From a virus, in IMG/VR virus record IMGVR_UViG_3300050029_000114, positions 1-64,000 of that record: DNA of 64,000 nucleotides; one strand, given 5' to 3'. Under the pieces are notes generated by a model. That model was not told where the DNA came from. It was given only the letters and a program-made list of their open reading frames with translations, and did not search any database. Numbering within the stretch: position 1 is the stretch's first letter; every line of letters begins with the position of its first letter. Of this stretch, positions 1,337-51,141 are shown in pieces. Made by a program: the position numbers and the translations under genes.

Positions 1337-3091
1337 TCAGCGGCGCCCGGTGCTGGTCACCCGGGGGATCATCACCCGGCCCGCCTGCCGGGCCTGCCCC
1401 GGGCCGCGCTCGGTCGTCGTCGGTGTCGCGGGCATCTGCCGGTGCGCGGCGCTCGTCATGCTTGCCTCTCCCCCGAACAGCTTGAGTAGCGCCTGGCTGG
1501 TCGCGTCGACCATGTCGTCGTGCGGGCCCGGGAACGCCGACATCTCCTCAAGGTAGGTGCCCGTCCACGGGGCCCGGGCGAGAATATGGACGTTCCCGGC
1601 CTCGATCTTGCCGGACTCGGCCCGCATCCGGGTCGCCTTATCCCCGACCGGTGTCGCCTTGATCAGCCCCGCCATGCCCTTGCGGCGGAGCCGTTGGACG
1701 GCGTCGCGTTCGTTGTCGGTCATGCCGATCTGGCTCGCCATCTCGACGCTCAACGTGTAGCCCGGTTTCGCCTGGCGTAACTCGGTCATCACTTCGGGGG
1801 CGTTGCCCGTGTACTCGCAGAAATGGCGGCGGATACCCGGGTGGCGGACCGCCATCAGGGCGATCGCGTTCGCGGTTGTCGCCTGGTTCCATTGGCCTCG
1901 TAACTGGTCGAGTAGCCATGCGTCGCTGCCCGTCCTGATCCAATACTGGCCCACGACGTAGTCGCCCTGCTCGTTGTCTTTCAGCTTGAAGTCCCACGAG
2001 GAAATCGCGTCGTCGAAACCGGGCGGGGCCTGATCTTCGAGCCGCCACCATGACCGCTTGATTTCGCCGCCCTCGGCCGGGCTGGGCCGCTGCTGGGATA
2101 GCGCGGCCGTCAGATAGGACCCGAGGCGTAGCTGGCGGCCTTTGACGGTCGCGAGCGAGAAGCGTTCCGGTTCTATCGGTTCGCCGGGCGCCCGGCCGAG
2201 CGGGTCCGGTTGGTGAAGGTACGGGTCGAGGCTGTCCGGGTCGTACTCCTCGGCTAGCTCGGGGATGCGGACTATCTCCCAAGCCTCGCCGGTCCCGTCC
2301 TCCATCCGCTGTTTCAGGCGGGCGGTCGTGTCGTCCTCGTGCCAGCGGGTGTGCACGATGAGTATCCAGGCGTCATCGGTTTCGAGGCCGGATGAGACGA
2401 CAGCCCGGTATTGGTTGTCGACTAGCTCTCGGCGGGCGAGGCTGTGCGCCTCCTGCCAGTCTTTGAACGGGTCGTCGAACACGACGCCGTGCGCGCCGAA
2501 CCCGGTCAGGCCGGACATGATTCCCGCGGCGACCACTCCGCCTCCGTCCCGGGTGGTGAACTGGCCTTTCTCCTGCTGGTCGGAGCGAAGCTCGGCGCGT
2601 AGCTCGTGGCGATGGAGGCGGAGGATGTCTCTGATGGCGAGGGCGTTCGTGGTGGCGAGCTTGTCGCCGTAGCTGACGAGGATCAGTTTGGTGGTCGGGT
2701 CACGGTCGAGCGCCCATGCCGGGCCCCACTGGCTCGCCCATGTGCTCTTGCCGTACCGGCGGGGCAGGTTCCATATCTGTCGGGGTGATTCGCCGGTGAC
2801 GGCCCGCGTGAACTTGGTGCCGAGGAGGACGGTGTACCGCCATAGCTTGATTCGGCCCCGGCTCAGGTGGTGGGCCATCGTGGCGGGTGTCTGCCGCCAC
2901 GCGAGGGCCGGGTCGCGCCCGGCGACTAGGTCTAGCTCCGGTTCGGATAGGGCGGCCTCGATGACCGTCATCGTGTCCTCGTCGGCGGCCTCGACTACCT
3001 CGGCGAACTCGGCTTCGCTGAGTGTCGTCAACCAGCGGCCCATCGCCTGCACCGCCTGGCTGTCGGGGCGCTGTCGGGCTCGGGTCGCCAT
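1337..3091 (-). CDS. terL: Terminase large subunit
   Basis: Walker A-like LPRRYGKST, VVFDDP Walker B, HTRWHEDD, C-terminal nuclease SSWD...DY and HDDMVDA motifs. Confidence 0.93.
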   Translation of the reverse strand: MATRARQRPDSQAVQAMGRWLTTLSEAEFAEVVEAADEDTMTVIEAALSEPELDLVAGRDPALAWRQTPATMAHHLSRGRIKLWRYTVLLGTKFTRAVTGESPRQIWNLPRRYGKSTWASQWGPAWALDRDPTTKLILVSYGDKLATTNALAIRDILRLHRHELRAELRSDQQEKGQFTTRDGGGVVAAGIMSGLTGFGAHGVVFDDPFKDWQEAHSLARRELVDNQYRAVVSSGLETDDAWILIVHTRWHEDDTTARLKQRMEDGTGEAWEIVRIPELAEEYDPDSLDPYLHQPDPLGRAPGEPIEPERFSLATVKGRQLRLGSYLTAALSQQRPSPAEGGEIKRSWWRLEDQAPPGFDDAISSWDFKLKDNEQGDYVVGQYWIRTGSDAWLLDQLRGQWNQATTANAIALMAVRHPGIRRHFCEYTGNAPEVMTELRQAKPGYTLSVEMASQIGMTDNERDAVQRLRRKGMAGLIKATPVGDKATRMRAESGKIEAGNVHILARAPWTGTYLEEMSAFPGPHDDMVDATSQALLKLFGGEASMTSAAHRQMPATPTTTERGPGQARQAGRVMIPRVTSTGRR

Positions 3092-3098
3092 AGGCGGT

Positions 3099-3335
3099 CT
3101 AGTCTGCCAGGTAGGCGTGCAGCGCCGCTCTGATCGCCTTAGAGCGGGCTCTGGCGGCCTGCTGGTGGGCTGGGTCAGCGGGCTCCCAAGTGTCCGCTAG
3201 TTCGGTGCCGTGGAAGATCGGGGCGGGCTTGCGGAACCGGTCGCCCTCGGCCATGAGCGAGTCACGTAGCCGGTCCCAATCAAGCCATAGCTGGCGTTCC
3301 TCCGCTCGGCGGTTCCGGCGGTTTACGGGCGGCAA
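3099..3335 (-). CDS. Hypothetical protein
   Basis: 78-aa ORF in the co-directional run between terS and terL. Confidence 0.5.
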   Translation of the reverse strand: MPPVNRRNRRAEERQLWLDWDRLRDSLMAEGDRFRKPAPIFHGTELADTWEPADPAHQQAARARSKAIRAALHAYLAD

Positions 3336-3517
3336 TCGTATCTGCCCGAGTCGGGGTCGAGATGGTCGAGCGGGGCGCCGTCGTGGCAGGCCGGGCAGCG
3401 TTTGTCGGCGTCCGGGTGCGGTTGCTCGGTCGGCGGCCTCGGGGGCGCGGTGATGGTCGAGAGCGGCGGGGCGGGCAGGACCGCCTCGAACACAGCCCGC
3501 ATGACCCGCGCCAGCAT
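3323..3517 (-). CDS. Small hypothetical protein with CPACH motif
   Basis: 64-aa ORF between terS and terL. Confidence 0.4.
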   Translation of the reverse strand: MLARVMRAVFEAVLPAPPLSTITAPPRPPTEQPHPDADKRCPACHDGAPLDHLDPDSGRYDCRP

Positions 3518-3522
3518 CGGGT

Positions 3523-4116
3523 TTACGCCTCCTCGGCTATCGCTTCGCCCGCCGCCTGCTCGTCGCTTCTACCGCCCCCACCCTGGATCACCCTGAACCT
3601 CTGCATCACCGCCGCCGCCCGCTGCTCCATCGGCACCGGGTCCGGTTTCTCGTCGCCCGGCCTGGCCTGCGCTATATCCGCGCCCGTCATCTTCCGGTAC
3701 GACTCCTGCACCTTCAACAGCACGAGGATCGCCTTCAACCGAATCTCGTCGTCCTCGACCGCGACCAGTTCGACCGCGCCGGTCACCCGGTTCTTGCGCT
3801 CCTCGTAAACCACCTTCCCCGCGTGCCGGACCGGGTGGCTCGCCACCATGATCTGCACCGTCCGGTAATACAGGTCCGCTAGCTGCTCCGCGGCGAGCGC
3901 CCGTATCTCCTCGACGTGCGGTGCCGGTAGCCGCTCCAGTTCCTTACTGATCGCCGTGCTCACGCTCCCCGGCCCGCCCGGGTACAACGGCCTGCCGTCC
4001 AGCCCGGGGCTGTCCGCTATCGCCTGGAGCGTCGCCCCCGCCTTCCGCAACTCCAACGCACGCGTCGCCTTCACCCGCGACTCCACCACCCGGCTCGACG
4101 TTTTCCGCCCGGCCAC
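3523..4116 (-). CDS. terS: Terminase small subunit (HTH)
   Basis: N-terminal HTH (ALELRKAGATLQAIAD), helical body, position upstream of terL. Confidence 0.75.
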   Translation of the reverse strand: MAGRKTSSRVVESRVKATRALELRKAGATLQAIADSPGLDGRPLYPGGPGSVSTAISKELERLPAPHVEEIRALAAEQLADLYYRTVQIMVASHPVRHAGKVVYEERKNRVTGAVELVAVEDDEIRLKAILVLLKVQESYRKMTGADIAQARPGDEKPDPVPMEQRAAAVMQRFRVIQGGGGRSDEQAAGEAIAEEA

Positions 4117-6535: not shown

Positions 6536-7174
6536 CGGCCTATCGGCCTCTGGCTGAGCGGCAGCCAGCCGTCCGGGCCCTCGCCGACCGCGGCTAGTCC
6601 GTCGAATCGGCGGTCGCCGCGCGGGCCGCTCACATGCCAGCGGAGACAGCCGCCGTAGCACGGCCAGGGTCGGTCCTTCCGCCACCACGGGAACAGGCGG
6701 CGCAGACTGGAACGGCGGACCGCCTCAGACATCGTGAAGCTCAGCCGTCCCGTCAGCCCGCAAACCTCCGGGTAGACCCCGCCGGGCGCTACCGCTGCTC
6801 CGAATCCCAGCGTCTTGAACGTGAGCCCGCCTCGGGGCGCCTGGAACGTCGGTAGGGCTGCCCTCGCCGGGGCCCAATAGTCGGGGCCGTTCGGCATCAG
6901 CCGAACCGGTGCGCGATGGAAGGCGGGACAGCCAGGCTGCCACCGCCCTCGATGAATACGAGCGTCAGGCCTTCGTCCTGTGCCCACTGGAGGGCGTCCC
7001 CGTGTTGCCAGTCGTCGAAGTCGGCCTGTAGGACGGTCATCGCTGCCGCCCACTCCGCCGTGTGAACGAGCCCTCGGGCCCGCTCGCCGTTGAATACGGC
7101 CAGCTTCTCGAATGCCTCGGGCATCGGTGATCCTCGGCCCATCGTGTCTCCGTTCGGTGAGGGTTCGGGTAGAA

Positions 7175-7585
7175 CTATAGCGCGCTAGGGGTGCGGGCGG
7201 ATTGGTAGGTGGTTTCGGCCTCAGCGCATTCGTCGCAGACGGCGCCCGATCGTCGTTCTAGCTGATAGCGGGCTCTCGTGCCGTGCCTGGAGGTTGCGGG
7301 CCTCCCGGGGCGCCCTGGGGGCCTTAGGCCGGGGATTACAGCAGTGATCCGGGCGAGGATCGTCGCCAGTTCGGGGGCGGTCAGGTCGCATGACTGCCGT
7401 TCGGGCATTCCGAGGGTGGCGCGCAACCGGTTCGCCAGTATCCGGCGGGTGTCGCGCTGACGGATCGTGTCGGCGGCCTCCCGGCAATGATCCGAACAGT
7501 ATTTCGTGGTGGTCCCGTTCGTCGGGTTGACATGGCATGGCCGGTATTGGCAGTGGGCGCACAGCGGGGGCGGGCGCTCGGTCAT
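7175..7585 (-). CDS. Zn-binding hypothetical protein
   Basis: CAHC...YCSDHC and HGTRARY...CDEC motifs typical of actinophage proteins. Confidence 0.6.
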   Translation of the reverse strand: MTERPPPLCAHCQYRPCHVNPTNGTTTKYCSDHCREAADTIRQRDTRRILANRLRATLGMPERQSCDLTAPELATILARITAVIPGLRPPGRPGRPATSRHGTRARYQLERRSGAVCDECAEAETTYQSARTPSAL

Positions 7586-9134: not shown

Positions 9135-9921
9135 TCACAGCGTGTCCCCGGGCATCTGCTGCCACACGGTCCCGTCAAGCTCAGGCTGGTGAATCTTGCG
9201 GCCGTTCGGCTCAGCGTCCTGCTTGAAGAAGAACGGGATGCCCTGGTCGTAGCAGCGGTCCCGTATCGGCCGCACCCAATCGATGTCCATCGGCCGGGCC
9301 CCGTGCCCGCTCTCCGCCCCGACGATCACCCATCCGATCCCGGTCAGGTCGAGCGAGGGCAGCGGTCCTAGCAGCGGCTCCAAGCTGAGGAACCGGACGG
9401 CGGCTGGGGTGTCCCGCAGGTGGTGGGCTCGGAACGTGAAGCGGTCGCTCTCGATGCTCGTGCCCAGCCAAATGTTGCGAGGTATGCCGACCGGCGGTGA
9501 GCCCTGCCCTGCCGACCAGCGCGCCCGGACGTAGCCGCGCATCCTCGGTGCCCGTTTCGTGAGCACCTGATAGGTGTGGCGGTCCGCTGTCTCCATCACG
9601 TCGAACACGGCGTTGAGGAAGCTGGCTGACGCGTCAGGGTGGAACAGGTCGCTCATGCTGTTCACGAAGATCAGGCGCGGCCGGGTCCAACGGTGCGGCT
9701 GGTCGAGCCGGTCCGGGTGTTCGGTAAACTTGAAACCGGGGCCGCTCGTGCGGGGATCGCCGTCAGCCTGGTAGGCCGCGCTACCCATCCGCTTCAGGCG
9801 GCCCGCCATCGTCAACGCATAGCAGTGGTCACCCGGGTAAGCACCCGGGCGAGACGCGATCGCAACCCGACGAAGGGTTCCAAGTCGCGTCGGTCCAATC
9901 GATGTTCGAGTGGTCGCCCAT
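9135..9921 (-). pseudogene. DUF5131 (phage Gp37/Gp68) protein interrupted by a 10-nt insertion
   Basis: ATG at 9921 gives [27 protein letters not shown] then LPG-stop. The rest (DHCYALTM...IFVNSMSDLFH...SLEPLLG...WVIVGAESG...FFKQ) is in another frame. The extra bases are TTACCCGGGT (9831-9840). Confidence 0.8.
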
Positions 9922-9933
9922 GGTTCTTTTGCC

Positions 9934-10344
9934 TCACCTCACTCTCGTGTTATGGCCCGAGACGAATCTCCTCGGGCGGTTCTCGCTGTCGTACTGCTGG
10001 AAGGTCGCCCCGCAGCCGCACTCGCATCCGGTCGATGGGTTCGGCGCGTCGGGGTGGCGCAAGTCTGTCCTTTTGCGATGATGCACGCGGTGGTGGGGCC
10101 GGTCGGTTACCTCTAGGTTTTCTAGCCGGTTGTCGGCCCTGTTCTCGTTGCGATGGTGGACCTCCTCGCCAACGGCTAGGGGTCTACCAAGATGGGCTGA
10201 GGCCACGAGTACGTGCTCGTAGACGTACCCGCGTACGTCCGCGTTCGGGTGGTCCGGCTGCTTGATCAGGACGTAGCCGTCGGGCGTCACTGTCCGGCCT
10301 CCCTTCCAGTTCGGGTTAGCGGCGCCCGGCTGCGAGCGGCCCAT
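9934..10344 (-). CDS. HNH homing endonuclease
   Basis: [31 protein letters not shown] motifs. Confidence 0.9.
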   Translation of the reverse strand: MGRSQPGAANPNWKGGRTVTPDGYVLIKQPDHPNADVRGYVYEHVLVASAHLGRPLAVGEEVHHRNENRADNRLENLEVTDRPHHRVHHRKRTDLRHPDAPNPSTGCECGCGATFQQYDSENRPRRFVSGHNTRVR

Positions 10345-10646
10345 CAGTACGCATCCCGGTAGCGGGCTCGCGCTGTCTCGCGCTCGGCTTCCCGCAACCG
10401 TCGTTCGAGGCTGACGCGGGCATCCTCCAACTCGTGGGCTCGGCGTTCAAGGTCGGACACTTGACGTTCAAGGTCGGCGACCTGGCTGTTCCGCCGGGAT
10501 AGCTCGCACTCCAACTCGTAAATCGTGTCGTGGGAGTCCCGCAGGGTCGCGGCTATCCTGGCGGACTCCTTCTCGGCTGTCTCGATGCGCTGGTCGCGCT
10601 CCTCGATGACTTGGCGTAGGTCGGCTATGTCCTCTCGGTCACCCAT
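10344..10646 (-). CDS. Coiled-coil hypothetical protein
   Basis: Heptad-rich 100-aa ORF, coupled on both sides. Confidence 0.55.
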   Translation of the reverse strand: MGDREDIADLRQVIEERDQRIETAEKESARIAATLRDSHDTIYELECELSRRNSQVADLERQVSDLERRAHELEDARVSLERRLREAERETARARYRDAY

Positions 10647-11235
10647 CGGGGTCGCCTTTCGTGATCGTGAACCCGAGCCCGCGTAGGCGTCGGGCGTTGC
10701 TGCGGCGACACTCGCCGCAGTCGTCGTAGCTCATGCCGTCCGGCTGGTCCGGGTGCGTGTACTCCAAGCGGACTAGATGAACCTCGTACTCGATGCCGCC
10801 GATGTCCGGGCCTGCGCCTGGCTTGCCGCACGAGTGGCAGCGCGGCCACGGTCCGGGCCGGTTGAGCCGGGCGCGCCGGTTCGGCTCCGTCAGGATCGCC
10901 TCGATAACCGACCAGTCGGCCGGGGTCCACACGTACGCCCGGACGTGGGCGGCGTTCAAGCTGGCGAGCACTTCCCGCTGGGCGGGTGTCGGCCGGTCCG
11001 GCGGTATCTTCAACTCGGCGGCGATGCAGCCGCCGTGGGCGGGATGCCAGAGGAGCAGGTCGGGCCAGCCGGTGATGTTCGTGCTCGTGATCCACTGGTC
11101 GCCCCTGCCGATGCTGCGCCGGATCGTCAGGAACTGCCAGCCCTGGATGGTGGCGAACTCGGTGACGTGGCGCTGAAATCCGATGTGATTGAGTTTTCCG
11201 CCGCCCATCCCCGGTAGAGGGCGAGGCGCGCTCAC
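10639..11235 (-). CDS. VRR-NUC domain nuclease
   Basis: GWPDLLL...AELK...PTPAQREVL PD-(D/E)xK motif; GTG at 11235 overlaps the upstream stop. Confidence 0.8.
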   Translation of the reverse strand: MSAPRPLPGMGGGKLNHIGFQRHVTEFATIQGWQFLTIRRSIGRGDQWITSTNITGWPDLLLWHPAHGGCIAAELKIPPDRPTPAQREVLASLNAAHVRAYVWTPADWSVIEAILTEPNRRARLNRPGPWPRCHSCGKPGAGPDIGGIEYEVHLVRLEYTHPDQPDGMSYDDCGECRRSNARRLRGLGFTITKGDPDG

Positions 11236-11867
11236 AGTGCCCCCCCTAGGTTGAGCCTGGCGAACTCGCCCCACGCCTCTACTGCGGCCCGGTCGAAGGC
11301 TCGTGCAGCGTCGTCCTCGTTATCGAACAGACCCAGGTACCTTTGACGACCGGCGATCTGGATATTGGCGCGCCATTTACCGCCTGATCGGTCGGTCCAA
11401 CACACGCCCCGGTATCGAGAAGAACCTCCCCGTGACCCTGCGTTAGCGATGTTCTGTGTCCGGGTCGCCGGACGGAGGTTCGATCGGCGGTTATTAAGCC
11501 CGTCTCCATCTCGGTGGTCTATCTCAGTCTTAGGCGGCGCTCCCACGATGAACCGGTGGAGGAGCGCCCATCGCTGCTCAGCTATAAGCCACGCATGGAC
11601 GTAGAAGCGGTCCCCGCTGGTGTGCAACGACCAACTGTGCTCGATCGCCCGATCCCAATCTCCGTCATCCACGTAGGCAACGTGGCCGCTGGGGAGGGAT
11701 AGGACACCGCGTATCGTCTGGCGCGGTGGCTTAGGGGGCCGCTTTGCTCGCTCTCGTTCCCGGTATCGGCGCGCCTTCAGTCGGTTGCGAACGCGTGTCT
11801 CCTCTAGGTCGACGTGCGTCAGTTTCTTCCCGGCGCCCATCCCGGGCAGCGGGCGGGGCGCGCTCAT
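11232..11867 (-). CDS. HNH-AP2 homing endonuclease
   Basis: LHRFI...IDHRDGDGLNNRRSNLR HNH, then AP2 domain SRYRGV...KWRANI...YLGLF...AARAFD; ATG at 11867 coupled to the upstream gene. Confidence 0.9.
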   Translation of the reverse strand: MSAPRPLPGMGAGKKLTHVDLEETRVRNRLKARRYRERERAKRPPKPPRQTIRGVLSLPSGHVAYVDDGDWDRAIEHSWSLHTSGDRFYVHAWLIAEQRWALLHRFIVGAPPKTEIDHRDGDGLNNRRSNLRPATRTQNIANAGSRGGSSRYRGVCWTDRSGGKWRANIQIAGRQRYLGLFDNEDDAARAFDRAAVEAWGEFARLNLGGAL

Positions 11868-12230
11868 CGCCCTCCCTCGGCTATCTCGCGTAGGGCCTGG
11901 ATGACCTCGCCGATGGCGTCCTTCTCGTGGCCGTCGAACTTGGCGTGCCATCTCACCGAATGCTCGATGAGCCGGTCGGCTGTAACGTCGGCCGGATGGG
12001 TGCGGGTTCTCCTGCGCTTCACAGGCATGGGTCGGCTCCGTCGAGGATGGGCGGTTCGGGCTCGGGGCATCGTGCGCACCGGCCCGGCGTCGTCGCGGTT
12101 AGTTGCTGGACGCGCTGGCCGGGATGACGACCCAACGTCTCGGCGGAATGCTCGGCGCATAGGACCGTCGAGAGCATCCGGCCGCCCTTCGGGTTCGGCG
12201 CCCAATGCAGGAACAGTGCCCCGTCGGCCA

Positions 12231-12479
12231 TCAGCCGCGCCCAACGAACACGCGGTGCTGGGCTGGGGTTCCGGGTGTAATGCAGACCTCGGATATGTCG
12301 CCTAGCTCTACCATCCGGTCGAAGCAGGCGAGGGCGAACCATGAGTCTCCGCCCTGGTGTGATGCCGCCTCTTGAATCCGGACGGCTCCCGCCTCGCCCA
12401 GCAATTTCTTTACTCGGTCGCGGATACGTATGAACGTTCGCTGGCCCTCCTCGGTGAACAGCTCGTAGCGGTATCCCAT
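12231..12479 (-). CDS. Hypothetical protein
   Basis: MGYRYELFTEEGQRTF...; coupled ATG at 12479. Confidence 0.5.
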   Translation of the reverse strand: MGYRYELFTEEGQRTFIRIRDRVKKLLGEAGAVRIQEAASHQGGDSWFALACFDRMVELGDISEVCITPGTPAQHRVFVGRG

Positions 12480-12766
12480 TAGTCGACCAGTCCTCCTAGG
12501 TTGGCCGGGGGCCGTGGCCGGGGCGGTTCCCCGTCGGCCCGCTCGGCTTGGGCGACTGCGTTGACGTGATAGCAGGGGCGCACCCCGCCGCGGCCCATCT
12601 CGCCGCGCTGCCGTCCTGCCATGCAGGTGCACGTGAAGAACGACGGTTCGCCGGTCGGTTTCTGCCAAGTGACAATCCGGTTCGTGTCGGGCTCGCTTCG
12701 CGACTTGACGGTCCACAGGCCCCGCTCGATCCGGTTCACGGGTCCGCGCGGCCAGGGGGCGGTCAT
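12479..12766 (-). CDS. SWIM zinc-finger protein
   Basis: FTCTC...PCYHV (CxC...CxH) preceded by WTVKSRS. Confidence 0.7.
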   Translation of the reverse strand: MTAPWPRGPVNRIERGLWTVKSRSEPDTNRIVTWQKPTGEPSFFTCTCMAGRQRGEMGRGGVRPCYHVNAVAQAERADGEPPRPRPPANLGGLVD

Positions 12767-13023
12767 GCGGTCGCCTTGTGGATCGGGACGTGGTAGCCGA
12801 AGCCGCCGTCCCATCGGGTGACCGCCGCGCACTGGTCGTACACGGCGCGGTAGGCCCTGCACATGCCAAGCTCCTCGATCGCGCACCAGCGCATGGTCGG
12901 GTGCCAGCGGCCGGTCACCGGGTCGAGTGAGTCTCCAACCTCGTCCTCGATGAGCGGCTTGTCGCAGTTCATGCACACGACGGCCGTGGTGAAGGCGGAC
13001 TTGTCTGTGCAGGTGAGGGTCAT
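12763..13023 (-). CDS. Cys-rich hypothetical protein
   Basis: Leaderless ATG under a class A promoter. Confidence 0.55.
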   Translation of the reverse strand: MTLTCTDKSAFTTAVVCMNCDKPLIEDEVGDSLDPVTGRWHPTMRWCAIEELGMCRAYRAVYDQCAAVTRWDGGFGYHVPIHKATA

Positions 13024-13072
13024 GGTGCCATCCTACTCCTCCGGGGCCTTGGTTGTCTAGGGGGTGCTAGCG
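13024..13072 (-). promoter_or_regulatory. Class A promoter CTAG-N6-CTAGACA-N18-TAGGAT-N6-ATG
   Basis: -35-like TAGACA at 13054-13059, -10 TAGGAT at 13030-13035, ATG at 13023. Confidence 0.75.
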
Positions 13073-13237
13073 GTTTTTTCGGCTCGTCCGGAAGGGGCTG
13101 GTGGACCGGTGCGCCATCCCAGGTCAGTTGGGCGTGGATCGCCACTTTCATCCGGTGCTCGGCCTCCTCGACCTCTCTACGGACCTCTGACGGCCAACTA
13201 GAACGGTCGACGCCCAACCCCATCGCGTTGCGGGCCA

Positions 13238-17300: not shown

Positions 17301-18968
17301 TCATCCGCGGGCCTTGCCTGGCTTCCAGCCGGGGGCGGCGTGCCCGACGGCCTCGATGTCAAGCTCGCACTTGGCCCGGGTGCAAGCCACGTAGAGCAAG
17401 CGAAGCTCGGCGGTGGACAGGTCGCCCGCATCCTCTTTGGGGGCGAAGAAGTCCGATCCAAGCTGGACGCTGTTCCACTCCCGGCCCTTCGAGCGGTGCG
17501 CCGTGCTGATCACCACGTCGGCGTCCTCCTCGCGGATGCCGCTGTCGAGGGCCCGCAGGATCGTGTCGATCCCGAAGTCGTCGATCAGTTTCACCATCTG
17601 CCGCAAGTCGCCGCCCTGCTGGTCGTTCTCAACGTAGTCCTGAACCTCGCCCCACGTCGAGAAGCAAGCCAACTCCGGGTGGTCGGTCGGCTGACCGGCC
17701 TGGAGGGTCCGGGCCGCCTTAGCGAACCGGATCGCCTCGACCGCCCCGCCCACGATGAACGGGCGGCGCCCGGCGGCCTGGAGGCTAATGACCTCACGGA
17801 CGGCCCCGGCGTTGGTGCGGGTCAGGATCGCATTCGGCTCAGCCGCAGGGCCGACAACGCTGGCCCGCTCCCCGAACCCGCTGATCCGCAGATCGGCGCC
17901 GATCCGGGCGAGCAGCCCGTTCGCAACCTCAGCGACCGCATGGCCGAACCGGAAGCTCTGGCTCAGGTAGGCGACCTTGCCGCCAAGAGCGGCGAACCGG
18001 TCGAGAGCGTCAACTGCGCCCCGCCACTCGTAGATGGCTTGCTGGCTGTCGCCAACCGCCACGACCTGCACGCCCCGCTCCATCTGCTGCTCGATGATGC
18101 TCAGCATCACCGGGTCGGCGTCCTGGGCCTCATCAAACAGGATGAAGTCGGCCTCGATGACCGGGCTGTTCAACTGCCACATCTTCAGGTAGTGGTCGTG
18201 CTCGAAGCGAAGCTGGCCGTCGGTCCGCTGGATGTCGGCCCACGCCTTGACGGCGTACGGGAGGACGTGGACGGCGAGGTCATTGTTGTTCGAGTAGGTG
18301 CGCTTGCCGTCCTCGGTCATCGGGTCGATGCCGTCCACGTAGGGGACGTGGCGCTTGCTCAGTTCGCGGTCGGCGCTCTGGCAGAACTGGCGGACCGTCT
18401 TGATCGCCAGCCCGGCGACCCATCCGGCCGCGAGCACCCGGCGCTCGGTCCCGTACTGCAACACGTACTGGTCGACGCCGAGGATGCGGGCGATCTGCTG
18501 GCCGGTCATGCGGACGCTGTTCAACCGGTGGCTGTAGGCCCGGCCGTACGCCCGGAAGGCGAGCGAGTGGGCCGTCGAGCATTGCACGTTGCCGCTCATC
18601 GTGAGCGCCGTGTCGTCGACGATCTTGCGGTTGAACGCTGTGTAGACGCCCTTCAATCCGCGGGTGTCGGCGTGCGCGGCGAGGAGGCGCAGGGTGCTCG
18701 TCTTGCCGGTGCCAGCCCCGGCCTGGATGACGAGCGGGTCGCCCGTGGCGAACGCCTTGACGCACACGAACTGCTCGGCGGTCGGCGTGAACGTCGGCAC
18801 CCGGGTTTCGGGGGCGGTCGGCTCGGCGCCGTCGGTCACGGGGCACTCCGTGTGCGCCACAAGCCACTTGCCGTCGACCTTCTCGATGGTGCCCTGCTGG
18901 GCGAGGACATGGCCGCCACAGGTGCGGCAGGTACCGGCGAACTTGTTGGGGCGGTTCGGTGAGGTCAT
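17301..18968 (-). CDS. UvrD/Rep-like superfamily 1 helicase
   Basis: AGAGTGKT, DEAQD, VGDSQQAIYEWRGA, LSQSFRFG, STAHRSKGREW, YVACTRAK. Confidence 0.95.
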   Translation of the reverse strand: MTSPNRPNKFAGTCRTCGGHVLAQQGTIEKVDGKWLVAHTECPVTDGAEPTAPETRVPTFTPTAEQFVCVKAFATGDPLVIQAGAGTGKTSTLRLLAAHADTRGLKGVYTAFNRKIVDDTALTMSGNVQCSTAHSLAFRAYGRAYSHRLNSVRMTGQQIARILGVDQYVLQYGTERRVLAAGWVAGLAIKTVRQFCQSADRELSKRHVPYVDGIDPMTEDGKRTYSNNNDLAVHVLPYAVKAWADIQRTDGQLRFEHDHYLKMWQLNSPVIEADFILFDEAQDADPVMLSIIEQQMERGVQVVAVGDSQQAIYEWRGAVDALDRFAALGGKVAYLSQSFRFGHAVAEVANGLLARIGADLRISGFGERASVVGPAAEPNAILTRTNAGAVREVISLQAAGRRPFIVGGAVEAIRFAKAARTLQAGQPTDHPELACFSTWGEVQDYVENDQQGGDLRQMVKLIDDFGIDTILRALDSGIREEDADVVISTAHRSKGREWNSVQLGSDFFAPKEDAGDLSTAELRLLYVACTRAKCELDIEAVGHAAPGWKPGKARG

Positions 18969-19017
18969 GTTCTCATTCTACGCCCTAGGTGTGTCCGTTG
19001 TCTAGGGTTTTCTAGCG
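18969..19017 (-). promoter_or_regulatory. Class A promoter, leaderless, driving the helicase
   Basis: CTAG at 19012-19015 and 19002-19005; TAGACA-N18-TAGAAT-N6-ATG at 18968. Confidence 0.78.
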
Positions 19018-19736
19018 CCTTTTGGGTTACAGGAAGGATCGGGCCTCGGCGAGCACGGCATCCGGCATCGGCTCGACCAGCCATGCCCGCCCGAACCGAT
19101 AGCCCGTCACCGGGCACACGAGATGCCTGTTGGCGTCGTAGCCGTTCCCGGTCACGGCCATATGGGCGCACCCGGCGCGCATGTCATTCAGATGCCAGCG
19201 GGTCCACAGGGCGTGGAGTCGGCGGGCCCGGTCGCTCGACCATCCGGCAGCGAAGTCGGTGACCTTCAAAAGCTCATCGAGGCACTGGCCGCCGCTCGCC
19301 TCCTGCCAGACGCCATTCCCTTTACGATCCTTCGTCTCGCCGCACACGCTCAACGTCAGGGTGCCTTCGGGCACCGCCCCGTCGATGACGATGGTCGGGC
19401 TCGTCACGTTCGGTTCCCATTCGCCCTCGGGTACGCCTGTTCGCAGCAGGGCGTGCGCGGCCTGGCGGTCGCCGTGGTCGGCCCGCGTCACCGGGATCAT
19501 GCCGGGTGGGCCTCGGCGAACCCGGCGAGCATCGCGCCGAACAGGCCCGCCATCGTCTCCGCCCCGTGCGCCGGTTTCGCCCTGGCCGCCACTCCCATCA
19601 GCTCGATCGGCGCCTGCGCCTTCAACAGCTCGTACAGGTCGGCTGTCTCGGCCGGGTCGTAGCCGACGCCGACCAGTCCCGCCTCGGTCGCGCTCAGCCC
19701 TTCGAGCATCGTGGCGAGTCCTTGCAGGTCCCTTGC

Positions 19737-20929: not shown

Positions 20930-20970
20930 GATGGTTCCTTTCGCCTGCTGGTGATGGGTCGGCGGCAACT

Positions 20971-21321
20971 CTAGCGCGCTAGTGGTCCTCTCGGGGCAAG
21001 AAGTCCTAGCTCGGTGCTCACCTTGACTTCGGCCTCGGTCACTTCGTGGCAGGGGCGGCATGTGGGGAGCAAGTTGGCCGGGTCGAGCGGCGATCCGCCC
21101 CGGCTGCGTTTCACCCGCTCGTGAAGCTCCGATGCCCATCCACGGCAGTTCGCCGCCTCGGGCCGCCCGGCGGTCTGGAGAATGGGCCCGATAACGCAGC
21201 GGGGATGGGCGTTGAGATAGGCCCGCCGCCAGGCCCGCTCTTCCCATGCAGCGTCGCTGTCCCGCTTGCGGATCGTGGCCGTCCGCAGGGAACCGGACCG
21301 TTTAAGCGGTGTCCGCTTCAC
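20971..21321 (-). CDS. HNH endonuclease (resident phage type)
   Basis: MKRTPLKR N-terminus; LHE...RSRGG...NLLPTCRPCH. Confidence 0.8.
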   Translation of the reverse strand: MKRTPLKRSGSLRTATIRKRDSDAAWEERAWRRAYLNAHPRCVIGPILQTAGRPEAANCRGWASELHERVKRSRGGSPLDPANLLPTCRPCHEVTEAEVKVSTELGLLAPRGPLAR

Positions 21322-37828: not shown

Positions 37829-37971
37829 TGGCGGGAGCTAGGAGTAGGCGTGTAGAGACGCCTCGTTCTTAGGCCACGGTCTAGTTGTCGAACACAAACC
37901 CGACAGCTACGACTCGCCCGCTCGGTATGCAACCTCCTACTAGGTACCGGACTGTGGCCTCCTAGCTCCAC
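37829..37971 (-). ncRNA. Unidentified structured RNA or leader upstream of rtcB
   Basis: 11-bp terminal stem GGAGCUAGGAG/CUCCUAGCUCC enclosing four further stems; starts ~7 nt after a TATAGT -10. Confidence 0.7.
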
Positions 37972-37989
37972 GCGCCGAACTATAGCGCG

Positions 37990-38994
37990 CTAGGGGCCGA
38001 CGTGCGCCCTGATCGCCTCTGCGGCCCTCTGTGCCGCTTGCCCGTCCGTTGCGACGTAAACGGTGCGGACCATCTCCTCGCGGGCTGTGCGGACCTCTGG
38101 CGGATCGCTGAGGGCAATCTCGACGGCCCGGACTAGGTGCTCAGGGTCGGATGCCCCGACCTGGCCGCGCGGCCAGTCCCAAAACCGGCCGCCATGCTGC
38201 ACGTCCCGCCGGTACCACGGGGCGTTCAACCACACGAGCGGGATGCCCAAGCTCGCCGCCTCCGGCAGAAGACTCGTGTTGTCGCCCACCAACACCGAGG
38301 CCCGGGCGAACACGTCGTCCACGTCGGGAACTGTCTCGACGCCGATCGCCTGCCACCGCTGCTCGATCTTCCGCCATAGGCGCGGGTGGCCGTGCCCGAT
38401 CACCTTGAACCGGTCCGCCAACGCCGGGAGGGCGTCGTCGTAGTGGCGCCACGCCCCGATCGTCTCCGGTATCTTCCTCGCCCCGAACCCGTGGAACGTG
38501 ACCGCCACCGTCGGCACTACCTCGCCCAACCCTGACGGCTTCAGCTTCCCGTCGTGCCAGCGGTCCAGGCGCGGGCAGCCGACCGCCACCGCCGGGGTTT
38601 CCGGGTACTCGTCCCGCCACCGGTCGGCGACCGCCTCCGATGGGCACAAGAAGAGGGCGGTCCCGTCGTGGCCTCCGCTGCCGCTGTAGCTCGTGTCGCC
38701 CGCGGTGTTCGGGTCGCCGTCGTAGCTCTGCCCGGCGCCGTGCTCGACGTAGACGGTGCGCCGCCCGGCTCGCTCGACGGTCGTCTGATCCATGATCCCC
38801 GCTACGATCACCGCTGGGCCTAGCCCGTGGGGCGCGCCCCACTCGACCCGGTCCTGCACCCATTCGGGCGGCTCGACACTGGCGAACTGGCCCGCCAGGT
38901 AGATCGTGCCCCGCTCCCCCATATCCAGGGCCCTCCAGATCGGCTCGATATGGGCCAGGTAGTGGGTCATCGTGGCGTACACGTCGACTGTCAT
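37990..38994 (-). CDS. GT-B fold glycosyltransferase / TagF-like transferase
   Basis: VEHGAG, VGCPRLD, HGHP, VLVGDNTSL..EAA.LG.P motifs. Confidence 0.7.
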   Translation of the reverse strand: MTVDVYATMTHYLAHIEPIWRALDMGERGTIYLAGQFASVEPPEWVQDRVEWGAPHGLGPAVIVAGIMDQTTVERAGRRTVYVEHGAGQSYDGDPNTAGDTSYSGSGGHDGTALFLCPSEAVADRWRDEYPETPAVAVGCPRLDRWHDGKLKPSGLGEVVPTVAVTFHGFGARKIPETIGAWRHYDDALPALADRFKVIGHGHPRLWRKIEQRWQAIGVETVPDVDDVFARASVLVGDNTSLLPEAASLGIPLVWLNAPWYRRDVQHGGRFWDWPRGQVGASDPEHLVRAVEIALSDPPEVRTAREEMVRTVYVATDGQAAQRAAEAIRAHVGP

Positions 38995-39685: not shown

Positions 39686-39979
39686 TCAGGTGGTCCGGCC
39701 GAGGTATCTGTCGCGCTCGGGGAACGTGCCCGTGCGGATACCGGTCATCAAGTCGTCGGTGATGGTGCCCTCCGGGCTGTAGCCAAGGTCGGCGGGCCAA
39801 TGCTCGATCCTGGCGACCTTGACCGTCTCGTTCGCACGCTTCAAGCGGCGCACCAGTTCCCGGGCCATGCAGTCCGGGCAGTTCGACCGCTCGCATCCGA
39901 CGACGCTCTCGCTGTCGCCCTTCTCCCGCTGGCAGCCGTGGCCGCCCATGGCCTCGATAACTATTCTGTAATCTCCGAT
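39686..39979 (-). CDS. Small Cys-containing protein with a duplicated, recoded 5' end (ATC start at 39979 or ATG at 39949)
   Basis: AAAGAGG-N6-ATC GGA GAT TAC AGA ATA GTT ATC GAG GCC is in frame with MGGHGCQRE. Confidence 0.6.
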   Translation of the reverse strand: MGDYRIVIEAMGGHGCQREKGDSESVVGCERSNCPDCMARELVRRLKRANETVKVARIEHWPADLGYSPEGTITDDLMTGIRTGTFPERDRYLGRTT

Positions 39980-40009
39980 GTCACACCTCTTTCGGGTTAT
40001 TGTTGCTAG

Positions 40010-40705
40010 GTGAAATCTCGATCGGTTGAGCCTTGCCAGGTCGCCGAATGCGGCGGCCGGTTTTACGCCCGTGGATGGTGCCGGTCACACTACAAGCGGT
40101 GGCAACGCTGGGGCGATCCGCTTGGTGTCGGGCCTCGCCGGGTCCGTCCGCCCCGCCCATGCGCCGTCCCGGGCTGCCCGAACCGTCACGCCGCGCATGG
40201 ATACTGCCAGGCGCACTGGACGCGAGTACGCCGATATGGCGACCCGCGGGCCGATCGACCGATCGCTGTCCCGGCTCCAGATCGTTGCATCGTTGAAGGA
40301 TGCGGGCGAAAACCATTCGGGCATGGCCTCTGCCAAGCGCACTATTCGCGCTTACGCCACACCGGCGGCCTTCGAGCGGATATCCCGATCGGTGCTCCTC
40401 GCCGTGAACTAGCCGATGGCGAGGAGCGGATCGGCAAGGATGGGTACGTCTGGACCCGAAGGGCCGGGCAGAGCGGCTACCAGCATCGGCTCCTGATGGC
40501 TGAGCACTTGGGGCGTCCCCTGCTCGGTAATGAGAATGTCCATCACCGCAACGGGGACAGGGCCGACAACCGGCTTGAAAACCTTGAACTCTGGATTGCT
40601 CCGCAGCCGCCGGGGCAGCGGGTAACCGACACATTGATGTGGGCACGAGAGGTTGTCGCGCTCTACAGCGCCCTTGTGGATAGCGGCGATGCGGTGGTTC
40701 GGTAA
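40010..40705 (+). CDS. HNH homing endonuclease with three C..C...C..H zinc-finger repeats
   Basis: [36 protein letters not shown]; the only clear plus-strand gene in the window. Confidence 0.9.
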
Positions 40706-40781
40706 GCCTCAATAACGATCCTGTAGTCACCCATTATCGGTCCTCCTCGGTTGCTGCGTCTGGCCTGCTGGCGCCAGGGTA

Positions 40782-47921: not shown

Positions 47922-47969
47922 GCGTATCCTTTCGGCTAGGAATCGCCCGAACTATAGCGCGCTAGTGGT

Positions 47970-48876: not shown

Positions 48877-51141
48877 TCACCGGCATACCAGGGCGTGACC
48901 TTCCCGGCAGGCTCGGGTGGTCGGGGCGATGATCGTGCATCCCCGCTGCGAGGGCAACGGGAACGGGGCCGGGAATACCTCCTCGATCCGCGTCATCGTG
49001 TCGATCAGTTTGAGCGCGTCGGTGAGGGTCCGCCGGTAGGTGGCGGTCTGCACTGCGATGTCGGCCAGGTCGGCTAGCTGGTCGTCGTCGGTGATCGTAT
49101 GCGTCTCGGTGATCGGGTGCTGGTCGGTCAGCCCTATCGTGTCGGTCAGCGCCCGGGTGATTGCCCGGCCGATGGGGTCCGTGAGGGTCAGCGGGTCGGC
49201 GGCAGCGTGTATCTCCGTGAGGGTCAGCGGGTCGGAGAGGCCCAGCGGGTTCGTCTGCGGCCGTGCTGCGGCCTGTGCGGCCACAGCCGGGTCGGTCAGC
49301 CCTTCGGCCTCGATGGTCGCCCGGATCGCGTGTTGGGCTAGGTTCGCCTGGTCGGTAAGACCCTCGGGCTCGGTCAGCGGCCTGACCGCGGCCTGTGCGG
49401 CCACCTTCGGGTCGGTCAGGCCCTCGGCCTCGGCGATCGCACGGCTGGAGGCGGTCGCCTGAACGAGCGGGTCGGCTAGCGATTCCCGGTCGGTGAACAG
49501 GTCGACCCCGGCCCCGGACCGGTTGATCAGGTCGAGCAGGCCCAGCGACTCGGTGACTACCCGGATATACGGGACCGCCTGGGAGCGCGGGTCCGTCAGG
49601 CCGACCGTCTCCGTCAGCGTCCGGGTAACGGCGCGCGCCGCGATCGCGTCGGTCAGGCCCTCCGGGTCCGTAGCGGGGCGGCTGGCGGCCTGGGCAGGCA
49701 CCCTGGGGTCGGGCAGGCCCTCCGGGTCCGTGAGGGCCCTCGCTGCGGCCTGGGCAGCCACCCTGGGGTCGCTGATGCCCTCGGCGTCGGCAATCGCCCG
49801 GATCATCGTCTGGACGGAAGCCTCGGCGTCCGTCAGCCCCAACGCCTCCACCAGTGTCCGGGTCAGGGTCCGCAGCGCCGTGTCTGTCAGACCCTCGGCG
49901 TCTGTGGGCGCCTGGGCGGCCGAGAGGGCCTGGCCGAGAGCTAGCGCCGAACTCTGCCCTGGCGGCAAACCGAGGGACACGAACCCTAGCCGCGATTGGG
50001 CGGTCCCCAGCGTCCCGTCCGCAGTGTTCGTCCCGACCCGCACATCGGCCAGCCCGATCACGTCGAAGAAGATGCCCCGGCTCGTCTGATTCGCCAGGCT
50101 GTCGGTGATGCCCTCGGCGTCCGTGAACGTCCGGCTGTACGACCACTGCCAGCCGGTATCGTTCCCGCCGTTCGTGGCGTTGGCGCTCGCCTGCCACGTC
50201 GCCCCGCCCGTCGCGTTGCTATCGGTCAGGGAGACGTAGTTGGCGGTGAATGTCCCCGAAGCCTTCGAGAGCGTCCACTGTGACCCGGGGGAGGAGGAGA
50301 CGAACGTGTAGTGGTGGGCCGAACCGGAGCCCTCCGTGAACGTGGTCACCGTTTGGGTGGTCCCGGCTGTCCACGTCACCGTTGTCGTCCCGCCCGTGAA
50401 GGCCAGGGATGCGAACGTGTTGGAGCCGCTGATCGTGACGTTCGTCGCGGCGATGGTGACAGCGTTGTAGGTGAGCCCGCCCCCGGCGAACGTCGTCGGG
50501 GCGGCAATGGCCGCGAACGAGATTGTGGAGGTCCCGGCGCTGAACGTGAGCCCGGTCGCCGCCGCGCTCCACGCCACGCTCCCGCCGTTCGTGATCGTGA
50601 TAGTCGAGGACCCGAGGGTAAGACTCCGGGTGAACCCGGAGTCGACCTGGAAGGTCCCGACACTGATCGGCTGGCTACCGGTATCGAGCGCCCCGCGGAT
50701 CACTTGGAAGGACCCGGACAACGCGATAGTGATCCCCGAGGAAAGCAGCCAGGAACCGCCCGCCCCGTTGAACTTGGTCGTCCCGAGGTTGTGGCCCCCG
50801 GTGTCAATCGTTAGCTGGGTGGCGGCCGTCGATGCGAAAGTGATCGCCGACGTATTGACGTTCCCGAGGGTGTACGTCCACCCGGTCGACGGGAACAGCA
50901 GGGCGAGTGTCCCGTTCGCCGTGCTCGTCCCGATCGTCAGTGTCACCCCCGCCGTGTGGGTGACCGTGCTCGTGTAGCCGGTCAGGTCGATGCTGCGGCA
51001 GACAGCCCCGGCATCGACCGTCAGCGCCCCCGAGGTCCCGGTCGCCACCACGTCGTCGGCGGCGGTCGGGGCGAAGCCCTCGACCCATGTCCCGGCGGAT
51101 GACCATGCCCCGCCTCCGTTAGCGATCGTGCGGGTCGCCAT
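48877..51141 (-). CDS. Thr/Gly-rich virion fibre protein with C-terminal ~19-aa repeats
   Basis: N-terminal beta-solenoid-like T/G/S segment; repeated R.LTD.EGLTD units. Confidence 0.7.
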   Translation of the reverse strand: MATRTIANGGGAWSSAGTWVEGFAPTAADDVVATGTSGALTVDAGAVCRSIDLTGYTSTVTHTAGVTLTIGTSTANGTLALLFPSTGWTYTLGNVNTSAITFASTAATQLTIDTGGHNLGTTKFNGAGGSWLLSSGITIALSGSFQVIRGALDTGSQPISVGTFQVDSGFTRSLTLGSSTITITNGGSVAWSAAATGLTFSAGTSTISFAAIAAPTTFAGGGLTYNAVTIAATNVTISGSNTFASLAFTGGTTTVTWTAGTTQTVTTFTEGSGSAHHYTFVSSSPGSQWTLSKASGTFTANYVSLTDSNATGGATWQASANATNGGNDTGWQWSYSRTFTDAEGITDSLANQTSRGIFFDVIGLADVRVGTNTADGTLGTAQSRLGFVSLGLPPGQSSALALGQALSAAQAPTDAEGLTDTALRTLTRTLVEALGLTDAEASVQTMIRAIADAEGISDPRVAAQAAARALTDPEGLPDPRVPAQAASRPATDPEGLTDAIAARAVTRTLTETVGLTDPRSQAVPYIRVVTESLGLLDLINRSGAGVDLFTDRESLADPLVQATASSRAIAEAEGLTDPKVAAQAAVRPLTEPEGLTDQANLAQHAIRATIEAEGLTDPAVAAQAAARPQTNPLGLSDPLTLTEIHAAADPLTLTDPIGRAITRALTDTIGLTDQHPITETHTITDDDQLADLADIAVQTATYRRTLTDALKLIDTMTRIEEVFPAPFPLPSQRGCTIIAPTTRACREGHALVCR

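Follow-up and report, generated by a model that had tools for sequence, protein, structure and literature searches.

The window analyzed here is the first 64 kb of the 86,051-bp IMG/VR virus record IMGVR_UViG_3300050029_000114, which is estimated to be 97% complete. It has a G+C content of 67% and contains a gene for an HNH-AP2 nuclease that is followed directly by a gene for a VRR-NUC protein (Table 1). All genes around this locus are on the minus strand. The nuclease and VRR-NUC both begin with the peptide MSAPRPLPGMG, and the codons at the two gene starts are exactly those given in an earlier reading of the DNA letters (the original prediction). That reading proposed that the nuclease gene had fused in frame to the original 5' end of the VRR-NUC gene and had taken over its coupled start, while the VRR-NUC gene received a recoded substitute 5' end whose GTG overlaps the nuclease stop codon. 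The repeated 5' end at the start of the nuclease gene is referred to below as copy A and that at the start of the VRR-NUC gene as copy B.

The nuclease reading frame is overlapped at both ends. The TGA (11866-11864) of a small upstream open reading frame (ORF) overlaps the nuclease ATG (11867-11865) as ATGA, and the VRR-NUC GTG (11235-11233) lies over the nuclease TGA (11234-11232) as GTGA, as had been predicted. The sequence GAGGGAGGG ahead of the nuclease ATG appears to be a strong Shine-Dalgarno site, a resident initiation signal that would now serve the nuclease, and a G-run inside the last nuclease codons is a putative Shine-Dalgarno-like site for VRR-NUC. Neither a promoter-like nor a terminator-like site was found in the locus region. 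No Rfam match was obtained in positions 9800-12600 at E values up to 1, and no ribozyme structure was found at the locus. A stop codon closes the nuclease ORF, and the host gene has a separate start codon; this is not the layout of an intron or an intein. The inserted cassette is not an intron, and it relies on resident signals.

Table 1. Features of the HNH-AP2/VRR-NUC locus in window coordinates. GC3 is the G+C content at third codon positions; the edges of the putative mobile unit (11810 and 11176) are accurate to a few codons.
Feature	Position	Strand	Basis
Small upstream ORF, 54 aa from ATG at 12028	11864..12028	-	No Pfam family
Shine-Dalgarno-like GAGGGAGGG, 2 nt before ATG at 11867	11870..11878	-	Read from sequence
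HNH-AP2 homing endonuclease, complete coding sequence, 211 aa, ATG	11867..11232	-	Pfam HNH_3 and AP2, homologs, model
Copy A, codons 1-19, reading MSAPRPLPGMGAGKKLTHV	11811..11867	-	GC3; peptide native to VRR-NUC family
Linker, codons 20-52, basic stretch	11712..11810	-	GC3 0.6; without counterpart in homologs
G-run GGGGGGG, 4 nt before GTG	11240..11246	-	Read from sequence
VRR-NUC coding sequence, 198 aa from GTG, reading MSAPRPLPGMGGGKLNHI	11235..10639	-	Pfam VRR_NUC
VRR-NUC codons 1-20 (copy B and two further codons), reading MSAPRPLPGMGGGKLNHIGF	11176..11235	-	GC3, rare codons
Putative resident VRR-NUC body, codon 21 to stop	10639..11175	-	GC3 0.9-1.0 per 20-codon block; Pfam VRR_NUC
Putative mobile unit, ~635 nt: linker, HNH-AP2 body, stop/start overlap, substitute 5' end	11176..11810	-	Composition breakpoints

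The nuclease matches Pfam HNH_3 (score of 31 bits, cut-off 24.8; E value of 2e-7), with an HNH part at approximately residues 54 to 145 and an AP2 part at approximately residues 150 to 202. A search found 1275 homologs of the nuclease, and homologs carry PF00847. Alignment showed that all invariant columns of the family are kept in the window protein, including D117, H118, N130, N139, and N142. An AlphaFold model with a mean pLDDT (predicted local distance difference test score) of 88.8 contains HNH and AP2 domains. The model superposes on the AP2 domains of AtERF1, TEM1, and ERF96 with a root mean square deviation (rmsd) of 1.1 to 2.2 Å over 57 to 63 residues at 32 to 43% identity, matches plant AP2 domains at an rmsd of ~1.9 Å, and matches the homing endonuclease I-HmuI (1u3e) with a probability of 0.95. 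The predicted structure thus supports the presence of a C-terminal AP2 DNA-binding domain. HNH-AP2 proteins are a recognized homing endonuclease family (PMC10448857). VRR-NUC matches Pfam VRR_NUC (PF08774; 24.9 bits against a cut-off of 23.8), and its GWPDL and ELK columns, a PD-(D/E)xK-type core, are invariant in alignment A1. It ends in an extension of ~75 residues with a zinc-ribbon-like CxxC...CxxC pattern (10639-10870, minus strand) that its relatives in A1 lack.

A repeat search of the window detected the two gene starts as a 40-nt DNA repeat of 85% identity (11195-11234 versus 11827-11866). A wobble-degenerate 31-nt pattern matched only the two copies in the 64 kb and gave 0 hits in 100 shuffles. 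Over codons 2 to 19, the copies are separated by 6.5 synonymous and 3.5 nonsynonymous differences and one codon indel, with proportions of synonymous and nonsynonymous differences (pS and pN) of 0.46 and 0.09, respectively. Over codons 2 to 11, there are 4 synonymous and 0 nonsynonymous differences. The claim that the copies differ mainly by synonymous changes was therefore borne out by the calculation. This pattern suggests a deep, protein-constrained divergence, as expected of two orthologous alleles and not of a recent local duplication. Because copy B differs from copy A by three amino acid changes and the indel, the "recoded" end of the original prediction is more plausibly an allele contributed by a diverged donor than a product of deliberate rewriting.

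Comparison with relatives shows that the shared peptide belongs to VRR-NUC and not to the nuclease. Among 16 VRR-NUC homologs, P0007 (149 amino acids, 44% identical) starts MSAPRPLPDVSEADFQ, so that its first 8 residues are MSAPRPLP, and it is the only relative with the same N-terminus. The starts of other VRR-NUC relatives, read in 72 metagenome loci, are MTAPEPMSE, VSAAPEPMSE, VSAPVPITE, and MTAPTITE, which are M-[ST]-A-P-x-P-like. HNH-AP2 homologs begin M-x-x-I-P-L-T-x-G, which aligns at approximately residue 53 of the window nuclease, and the MSAPRPLP motif is absent from all 119 of them; homologs at unrelated loci that began with this peptide would have spoken for ownership by the nuclease. 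There is no in-frame ATG, GTG, or TTG between M10 of the nuclease and its conserved domain, and the nuclease thus has no start codon of its own and is translatable only from a borrowed one. Residues 20 to 52, the linker, have no counterpart in other HNH-AP2 genes in alignment A2 or by tblastn; apparent tblastn counterparts were read-through of upstream DNA containing stop codons and were rejected. The linker would be the first part of the foreign cassette.

Codon composition was examined in blocks of 20 codons, relative to a GC3 of 0.85 for the reference genes of the window. In the nuclease gene, the first block has a GC3 of 0.95, followed by 0.6, 0.7, 0.7, 0.75, 0.7, 0.7, 0.5, 0.6, and 0.7. 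In the VRR-NUC gene the order is reversed, with 0.60 in the first block and then 1.0, 1.0, 0.9, 0.9, 0.95, 0.9, and so on. Copy A has 18 of 19 codons ending in G or C versus 129 of 192 in the nuclease body (Fisher P = 0.016) and does not differ from the VRR-NUC body (P = 1.0). Conversely, the first 20 VRR-NUC codons have 12 of 20 ending in G or C versus 162 of 178 in the rest of the gene (0.60 versus 0.91; P = 0.0007) and do not differ from the nuclease body (P = 0.62). Copy B contains the rare codons CCT, CCT, CTA, GGA, and AAT, and GGA and TTT follow just past the repeat; each rare codon in the first 20 makes up 3 to 10% of the codons for its amino acid in the genome. A general tendency of gene starts toward low GC3 was considered for copy B and rejected, as 74 crude gene starts gave a first-20-codon mean of 0.84 and only 5 were at or below 0.60. 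Copy A and the rest of the VRR-NUC gene thus look native, VRR-NUC codons 1 to 20 and the nuclease body look foreign, and the composition breaks at the repeat edges.

The breakpoints at the repeat edges suggest that the foreign-looking block from ~11810 to 11176, that is, the nuclease with the substitute 5' end, would be the mobile unit. On the same composition, copy A reads as the displaced resident 5' end of the VRR-NUC gene, now the N-terminus of the nuclease, and copy B as a substitute 5' end carried by the cassette. The working VRR-NUC gene would be a chimera of donor-derived codons 1 to 20 and a resident body. The foreign GC3 of the nuclease is also the one feature that would speak for its recent arrival at the VRR-NUC locus. 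The hexamer CACGTC, present at the left junction and in VRR-NUC codons 23-24, was rejected as a microhomology junction, since the empty allele it implies would lose the family-invariant FQ motif.

Composition also bears on the opposite polarity, in which the nuclease arrived with copy A from the VRR-NUC gene of an earlier host and inserted upstream of an intact resident gene, with copy B resident. The layout alone is symmetric and would suit either direction. We nevertheless consider this unlikely, because it is copy A that has native GC3 and copy B that has low GC3 and very rare codons, including the GGA and TTT beyond the repeat, and because copy A includes the ATG that overlaps, as ATGA, the stop codon of the resident gene upstream. 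A local tandem duplication of the first 19 codons at an illegitimate insertion, after which the downstream copy drifted or was selected against repeat recombination or cutting, would account for the predominance of synonymous differences. It would also account for the direction of the changes, as 4 of the 6 purely synonymous changes from copy A to copy B are to A or T, as random wobble change from G/C-ending codons would give. Against it, a pS of 0.46 needs long residence, yet the nuclease body is unameliorated (GC3 of 0.67 versus 0.85 to 0.9); the rare codons reach two codons past the repeat; and the copies also differ by amino acid changes and the indel. We regard such a duplication as still less likely than the opposite polarity. 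The high pS beside an unameliorated nuclease body argues instead that copy B arrived already diverged, as the allele of another phage, and did not drift in place.

We conclude that the locus probably holds a free-standing HNH-AP2 homing endonuclease cassette, inserted inside the 5' end of the VRR-NUC gene at approximately codon 19/20, that brings a spare allelic 5' end and uses a borrowed start. The interpretation in the original prediction is supported by composition, by ownership of the peptide, by the missing nuclease start, and by sibling loci described below. Its proposal that the nuclease fused in frame to the original 5' end and took the coupled start agrees with a peptide native to VRR-NUC, the ATGA, the strong Shine-Dalgarno site, and the lack of a start codon in the nuclease itself. 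Its description of the upstream copy as native-looking agrees with both GC3 and the Fisher tests, by which the downstream copy resembles the nuclease body.

Such a cassette would need neither an intron nor an intein. Its mobile unit would combine the nuclease gene with a spare allele of VRR-NUC codons 1 to ~20, placed directly behind it. Once inserted, it would leave resident codons 1 to 19 upstream with their ribosome-binding site and ATGA-coupled start, fused in frame to the nuclease. Having no start of its own and being fused to resident codons, the nuclease would be translated from the initiation signals of the host gene. VRR-NUC would be rebuilt as the chimera of donor codons 1 to 20 and resident body and translated by termination-reinitiation at the GTGA. 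The enzyme is predicted to cut nuclease-free VRR-NUC alleles near codon 19/20, and double-strand-break repair from the occupied genome would copy the cassette in. In this repair, the resident first codons would pair with copy A and the gene body would pair beyond copy B. The occupied allele would resist cutting, with its target divided by the insertion and the spare copy written in other codons.

The same layout was searched for at other HNH-AP2 genes by a BLAST-based comparison of six-frame translations of the two flanks of 84 loci (83 from IMG/VR and the window). Flank pairs from different loci (6972 pairs) reached at most 32.1 bits. Three loci exceeded this maximum: L104 (50.3 bits), the window (45.7 bits), and L083 (36.4 bits). 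In L104, MMSESPFRPAAKEA is the start of the nuclease and MTESPFRPAAKEA that of the AAA_24 ATPase encoded behind it, and the copies differ by five synonymous changes and one replacement. The shared peptide, MSESPFRPAAKEA, is the universal N-terminus of the downstream ATPase family: the 62 closest ATPase homologs with starts read begin MSENPF(K/R)PAAKEAVKARIAL or close variants, so the peptide here again belongs to the target gene. L104 was considered as a relative of the window phage and rejected, as its genome (G001) has a VRR-NUC that is 38% identical over 58 residues and the window lacks its ATPase. No close relative of L104 was found in IMG/VR. In L083, the nuclease gene lies between terminase and portal genes and is preceded by a leader ORF of 24 codons, which repeats the N-terminus of the portal protein and has a stop codon overlapping the nuclease ATG.

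A search with the portal found two more occupied lineages (L181 and L189/L190) and many empty ones. L181 has a short leader ORF, and in L189/L190 the remnant is fused in frame to the nuclease. Expression of the nuclease from the host start would thus take the form of a fusion in the window, L104, and L190 and of a coupled leader ORF in L083 and L181. L180 has no nuclease and a portal protein 89% identical to that of L181, which gives a pair of related genomes with and without the nuclease. Positions 1-2141 of L180 align with 334-2486 of L181, and 2181-4430 of L180 align with 3082-5338 of L181. Relative to the empty allele, L181 has 39 nt (portal codons 15-27) replaced by 595 nt, with the alignment running to codon 14 of the upstream copy and resuming at approximately codon 28-30 of the portal gene. 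The upstream copy in L181 continues the resident DNA at ~93% identity to L180, and the first ~28 codons of the working portal gene in L181 are foreign. The chimeric host gene is therefore directly observed in L181 versus L180.

The block of nuclease and substitute 5' end is ~86% identical between L181 and L190, while the adjoining flanks are 48 to 68% identical and the rest of the portal gene is ~75% identical. These identities indicate that the spare portal gene start travels with the nuclease, which a local tandem duplication would not predict. In the L180/L181 pair, the resident DNA upstream of the gene continues in the empty allele into the upstream copy. Composition predicts this same polarity for the window, and the pair speaks against the opposite one. 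The L104 upstream copy is slightly richer in A/T-ending codons than the downstream copy, as the opposite polarity would have it.

The sibling loci also bear on whether the shared N-terminus could serve as a functional tag, such as a docking peptide, required by both nucleases and acquired by exon-shuffling-like recombination unrelated to homing. Residues 1 to 11 are the same in both proteins although their codons show 4 synonymous changes, and residues 1 to 8 are shared with P0007, whose overall identity is only 44%, as such a tag would require. The sibling loci, however, share a different peptide each time, always that of the downstream gene (ATPase or portal), and in L083 and L181 the peptide is a short leader ORF that ends in a stop codon and is not part of the nuclease. 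Furthermore, residues 1 to 17 of the window nuclease are modelled without secondary structure and at the lowest confidence (pLDDT of 65 to 72), ahead of a long helix at residues 18 to 42. A functional tag is therefore very improbable.

The layout was found in none of 73 HNH-AP2 loci from bacterial genomes, mostly Planctomycetota. One of these, L242, gave a strong flank repeat and was rejected as a case because it is a tandem pair of nuclease paralogs. At 2249-3758 of this Pirellulales metagenome-assembled genome, the two HNH-AP2 paralogs have Cys-rich N-terminal extensions, and the repeat is ~300 nt long with 91% identity at a spacing of 742 nt. A genome scan found HNH-AP2 genes to be multicopy in many Planctomycetota genomes.

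Several observations weigh against a homing cassette with resident copy A in the window. The Pfam AP2 match of the nuclease falls below the curated cut-off (21.1 versus 33.3 bits; E value of 4e-4), and we accepted the domain because of the structure match. The polarity proposed for the window draws on the composition of 19 to 20 codons and on analogy with the sibling loci, and the copies in L104 are indistinguishable by composition. Translation of VRR-NUC from the GTG is a prediction, and the public gene call begins at an internal ATG (M10, 11208; P0001, 189 amino acids). Finally, neither a nuclease-free allele nor a close relative of the phage was found in the databases searched.

These searches covered 50,697 phage records, in which megablast and tblastn gave no match, and IMG/VR, which contained one VRR-NUC relative at 34% identity. 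The closest VRR-NUC overall was 54% identical; the best in the 72 metagenome loci was 53% identical, and none of these began MSAPRPLP. A wobble-degenerate DNA pattern for MSAPRPLP gave two hits in IMG/VR, which were rejected as chance matches in unrelated frames. Peat metagenome run X1 contains the whole stretch and may be its source. In one X1 contig (depth of 8.7 versus 33), a 5-nt insertion, CTGTA, follows 11871 a short distance ahead of the nuclease start, and the sample therefore contains a second strain or relative, which might carry another allele of the VRR-NUC/HNH-AP2 locus. A second peat sample, X2, holds the phage as short low-depth contigs, none of which covers 11114-11853, and is uninformative on a nuclease-free form.

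Homing endonucleases are thought to enter coding genes only hidden by an intron or intein or to sit between genes. The free-standing Seg and Mob enzymes of T4, which act by "intronless homing," would resemble the window nuclease in cutting a nuclease-free genome and in repair with coconversion of the flanks. The enzyme family (HNH-AP2 is a recognized homing family) and the protection of the occupied allele by sequence differences are further likenesses. In contrast, the classical nuclease genes are intergenic and have a start codon of their own, or they divide one gene into parts for two polypeptides. The cassette proposed for VRR-NUC instead occupies the interior of a gene, uses the start of that gene, and brings a substitute for its end.

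The WHO elements of Torulaspora and Lachancea yeasts use a duplicated fragment of the gene as their second homology arm, and differences between alleles account for resistance (Coughlan et al. 2020, eLife, PMC7282813). As proposed for the window, the homing element enters a coding gene without an intron or intein, its unit is an endonuclease gene with an allelic copy of the host gene end, and resistance arises through allelic sequence differences. The WHO host gene is chimeric with a donor-derived end, as the VRR-NUC gene would be, and the displaced resident end across the nuclease gene is the second homology arm. The corresponding arrangement of fragment and gene is present in the window, where copy A and copy B with the full VRR-NUC gene flank the nuclease. 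In contrast, WHO elements replace the 3' part of FBA1, encode LAGLIDADG/zinc-finger proteins, and are nuclear elements of yeasts, while at the phage locus an HNH-AP2 gene is found at a 5' end. The displaced phage fragment is not dead DNA, as it supplies the ribosome-binding site, the start codon, and the first 19 residues of the nuclease. Cleavage has been shown for Who6 and is inferred for the phage enzyme. The cassette would act in the manner of a WHO element but lies outside the WHO/HO LAGLIDADG-zinc-finger family.

Mobile endonuclease ORFs of fungal mitochondria, such as those of Allomyces macrogynus atp6 and Ophiostoma rps3-LAGLIDADG, form hybrid genes whose 3' ends have been replaced. 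They share with the phage cassette the in-frame joining of an endonuclease ORF to its host gene and the duplication of a gene terminus, whose diverged second copy keeps the gene whole. They differ in being organellar, in encoding GIY-YIG or LAGLIDADG enzymes, and in using the 3' terminus with the nuclease behind the host gene, so that the start is not taken over. For rps3, an in-frame endonuclease fusion has been described (PMC7902536). Gene-end replacement has been called a third, rare category of homing element in a preprint that does not mention phages (Osborne et al. 2026, doi 10.64898/2026.08.13.744650), and no published phage example of a gene-start-replacing layout was found in the literature searched. 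Whether the phage HNH-AP2 genes and other nuclease families of this genome are a widespread viral counterpart of this third category, described to date solely for yeast WHO elements, and act at 5' ends with the displaced fragment as translation start, is in our view an evenly balanced proposition.

If it is true, nuclease expression would be locked to the expression signals of the target gene, and successive rounds of homing would continually exchange the N-termini encoded by core phage genes such as those for portal, ATPase, and VRR-NUC. The phage loci would show the logic of WHO elements mirrored to the 5' end, with start-codon capture added, and this capture would explain how a nuclease without its own promoter or ribosome-binding site is expressed. 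For annotation, orphan leader ORFs, odd N-terminal extensions of HNH proteins, and patches of rare codons at gene starts can be scars of homing, and the first 15 to 30 codons of a phage gene can differ in history from the remainder.

The original prediction had counted the VRR-NUC locus as a second independent case of one architecture, and another case in the window was found at 39950-40734, where nine codons are repeated around an HNH gene. This third HNH gene (40010..40705, plus strand) is antisense to its neighbors and lies between two GDYRIVIEA copies of a minus-strand gene. The copies have six synonymous differences, and the downstream copy is preceded by ATC and has no canonical start codon. 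Just downstream of the second HNH gene of the window (10344..9934), a DUF5131 gene is frame-broken (9815-9921, minus strand). Its first frame ends LPG-stop and the sequence continues in the +1 frame as DHCYALTMAGRL; the break is explained by ten extra bases repeating CCCGGGT, and the Pfam match of the downstream ORF starts at profile position 31.

Three sets of repeats were observed elsewhere in the window. A conserved motif of ~20 nt with the core GAACTATAGCGCGCTAG occurs four times (7156-7192, 20950-20986, 37961-37997, and 47933-47969), apparently near gene boundaries, and may be a phage promoter or operator motif. A 61-nt repeat of 70% identity (13018-13078 and 18963-19023) shares GGTCATG...GTTGTCTAGGG...CTAGCG...TTTT and resembles a minus-strand gene start or regulatory region present in two copies. 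Finally, 49122-50134 contains several families of imperfect repeats (61 to 82% identity) at spacings in multiples of 60 nt inside ORF 48877..51141 (minus strand), which suggests that this ORF encodes a repeat-domain structural protein.

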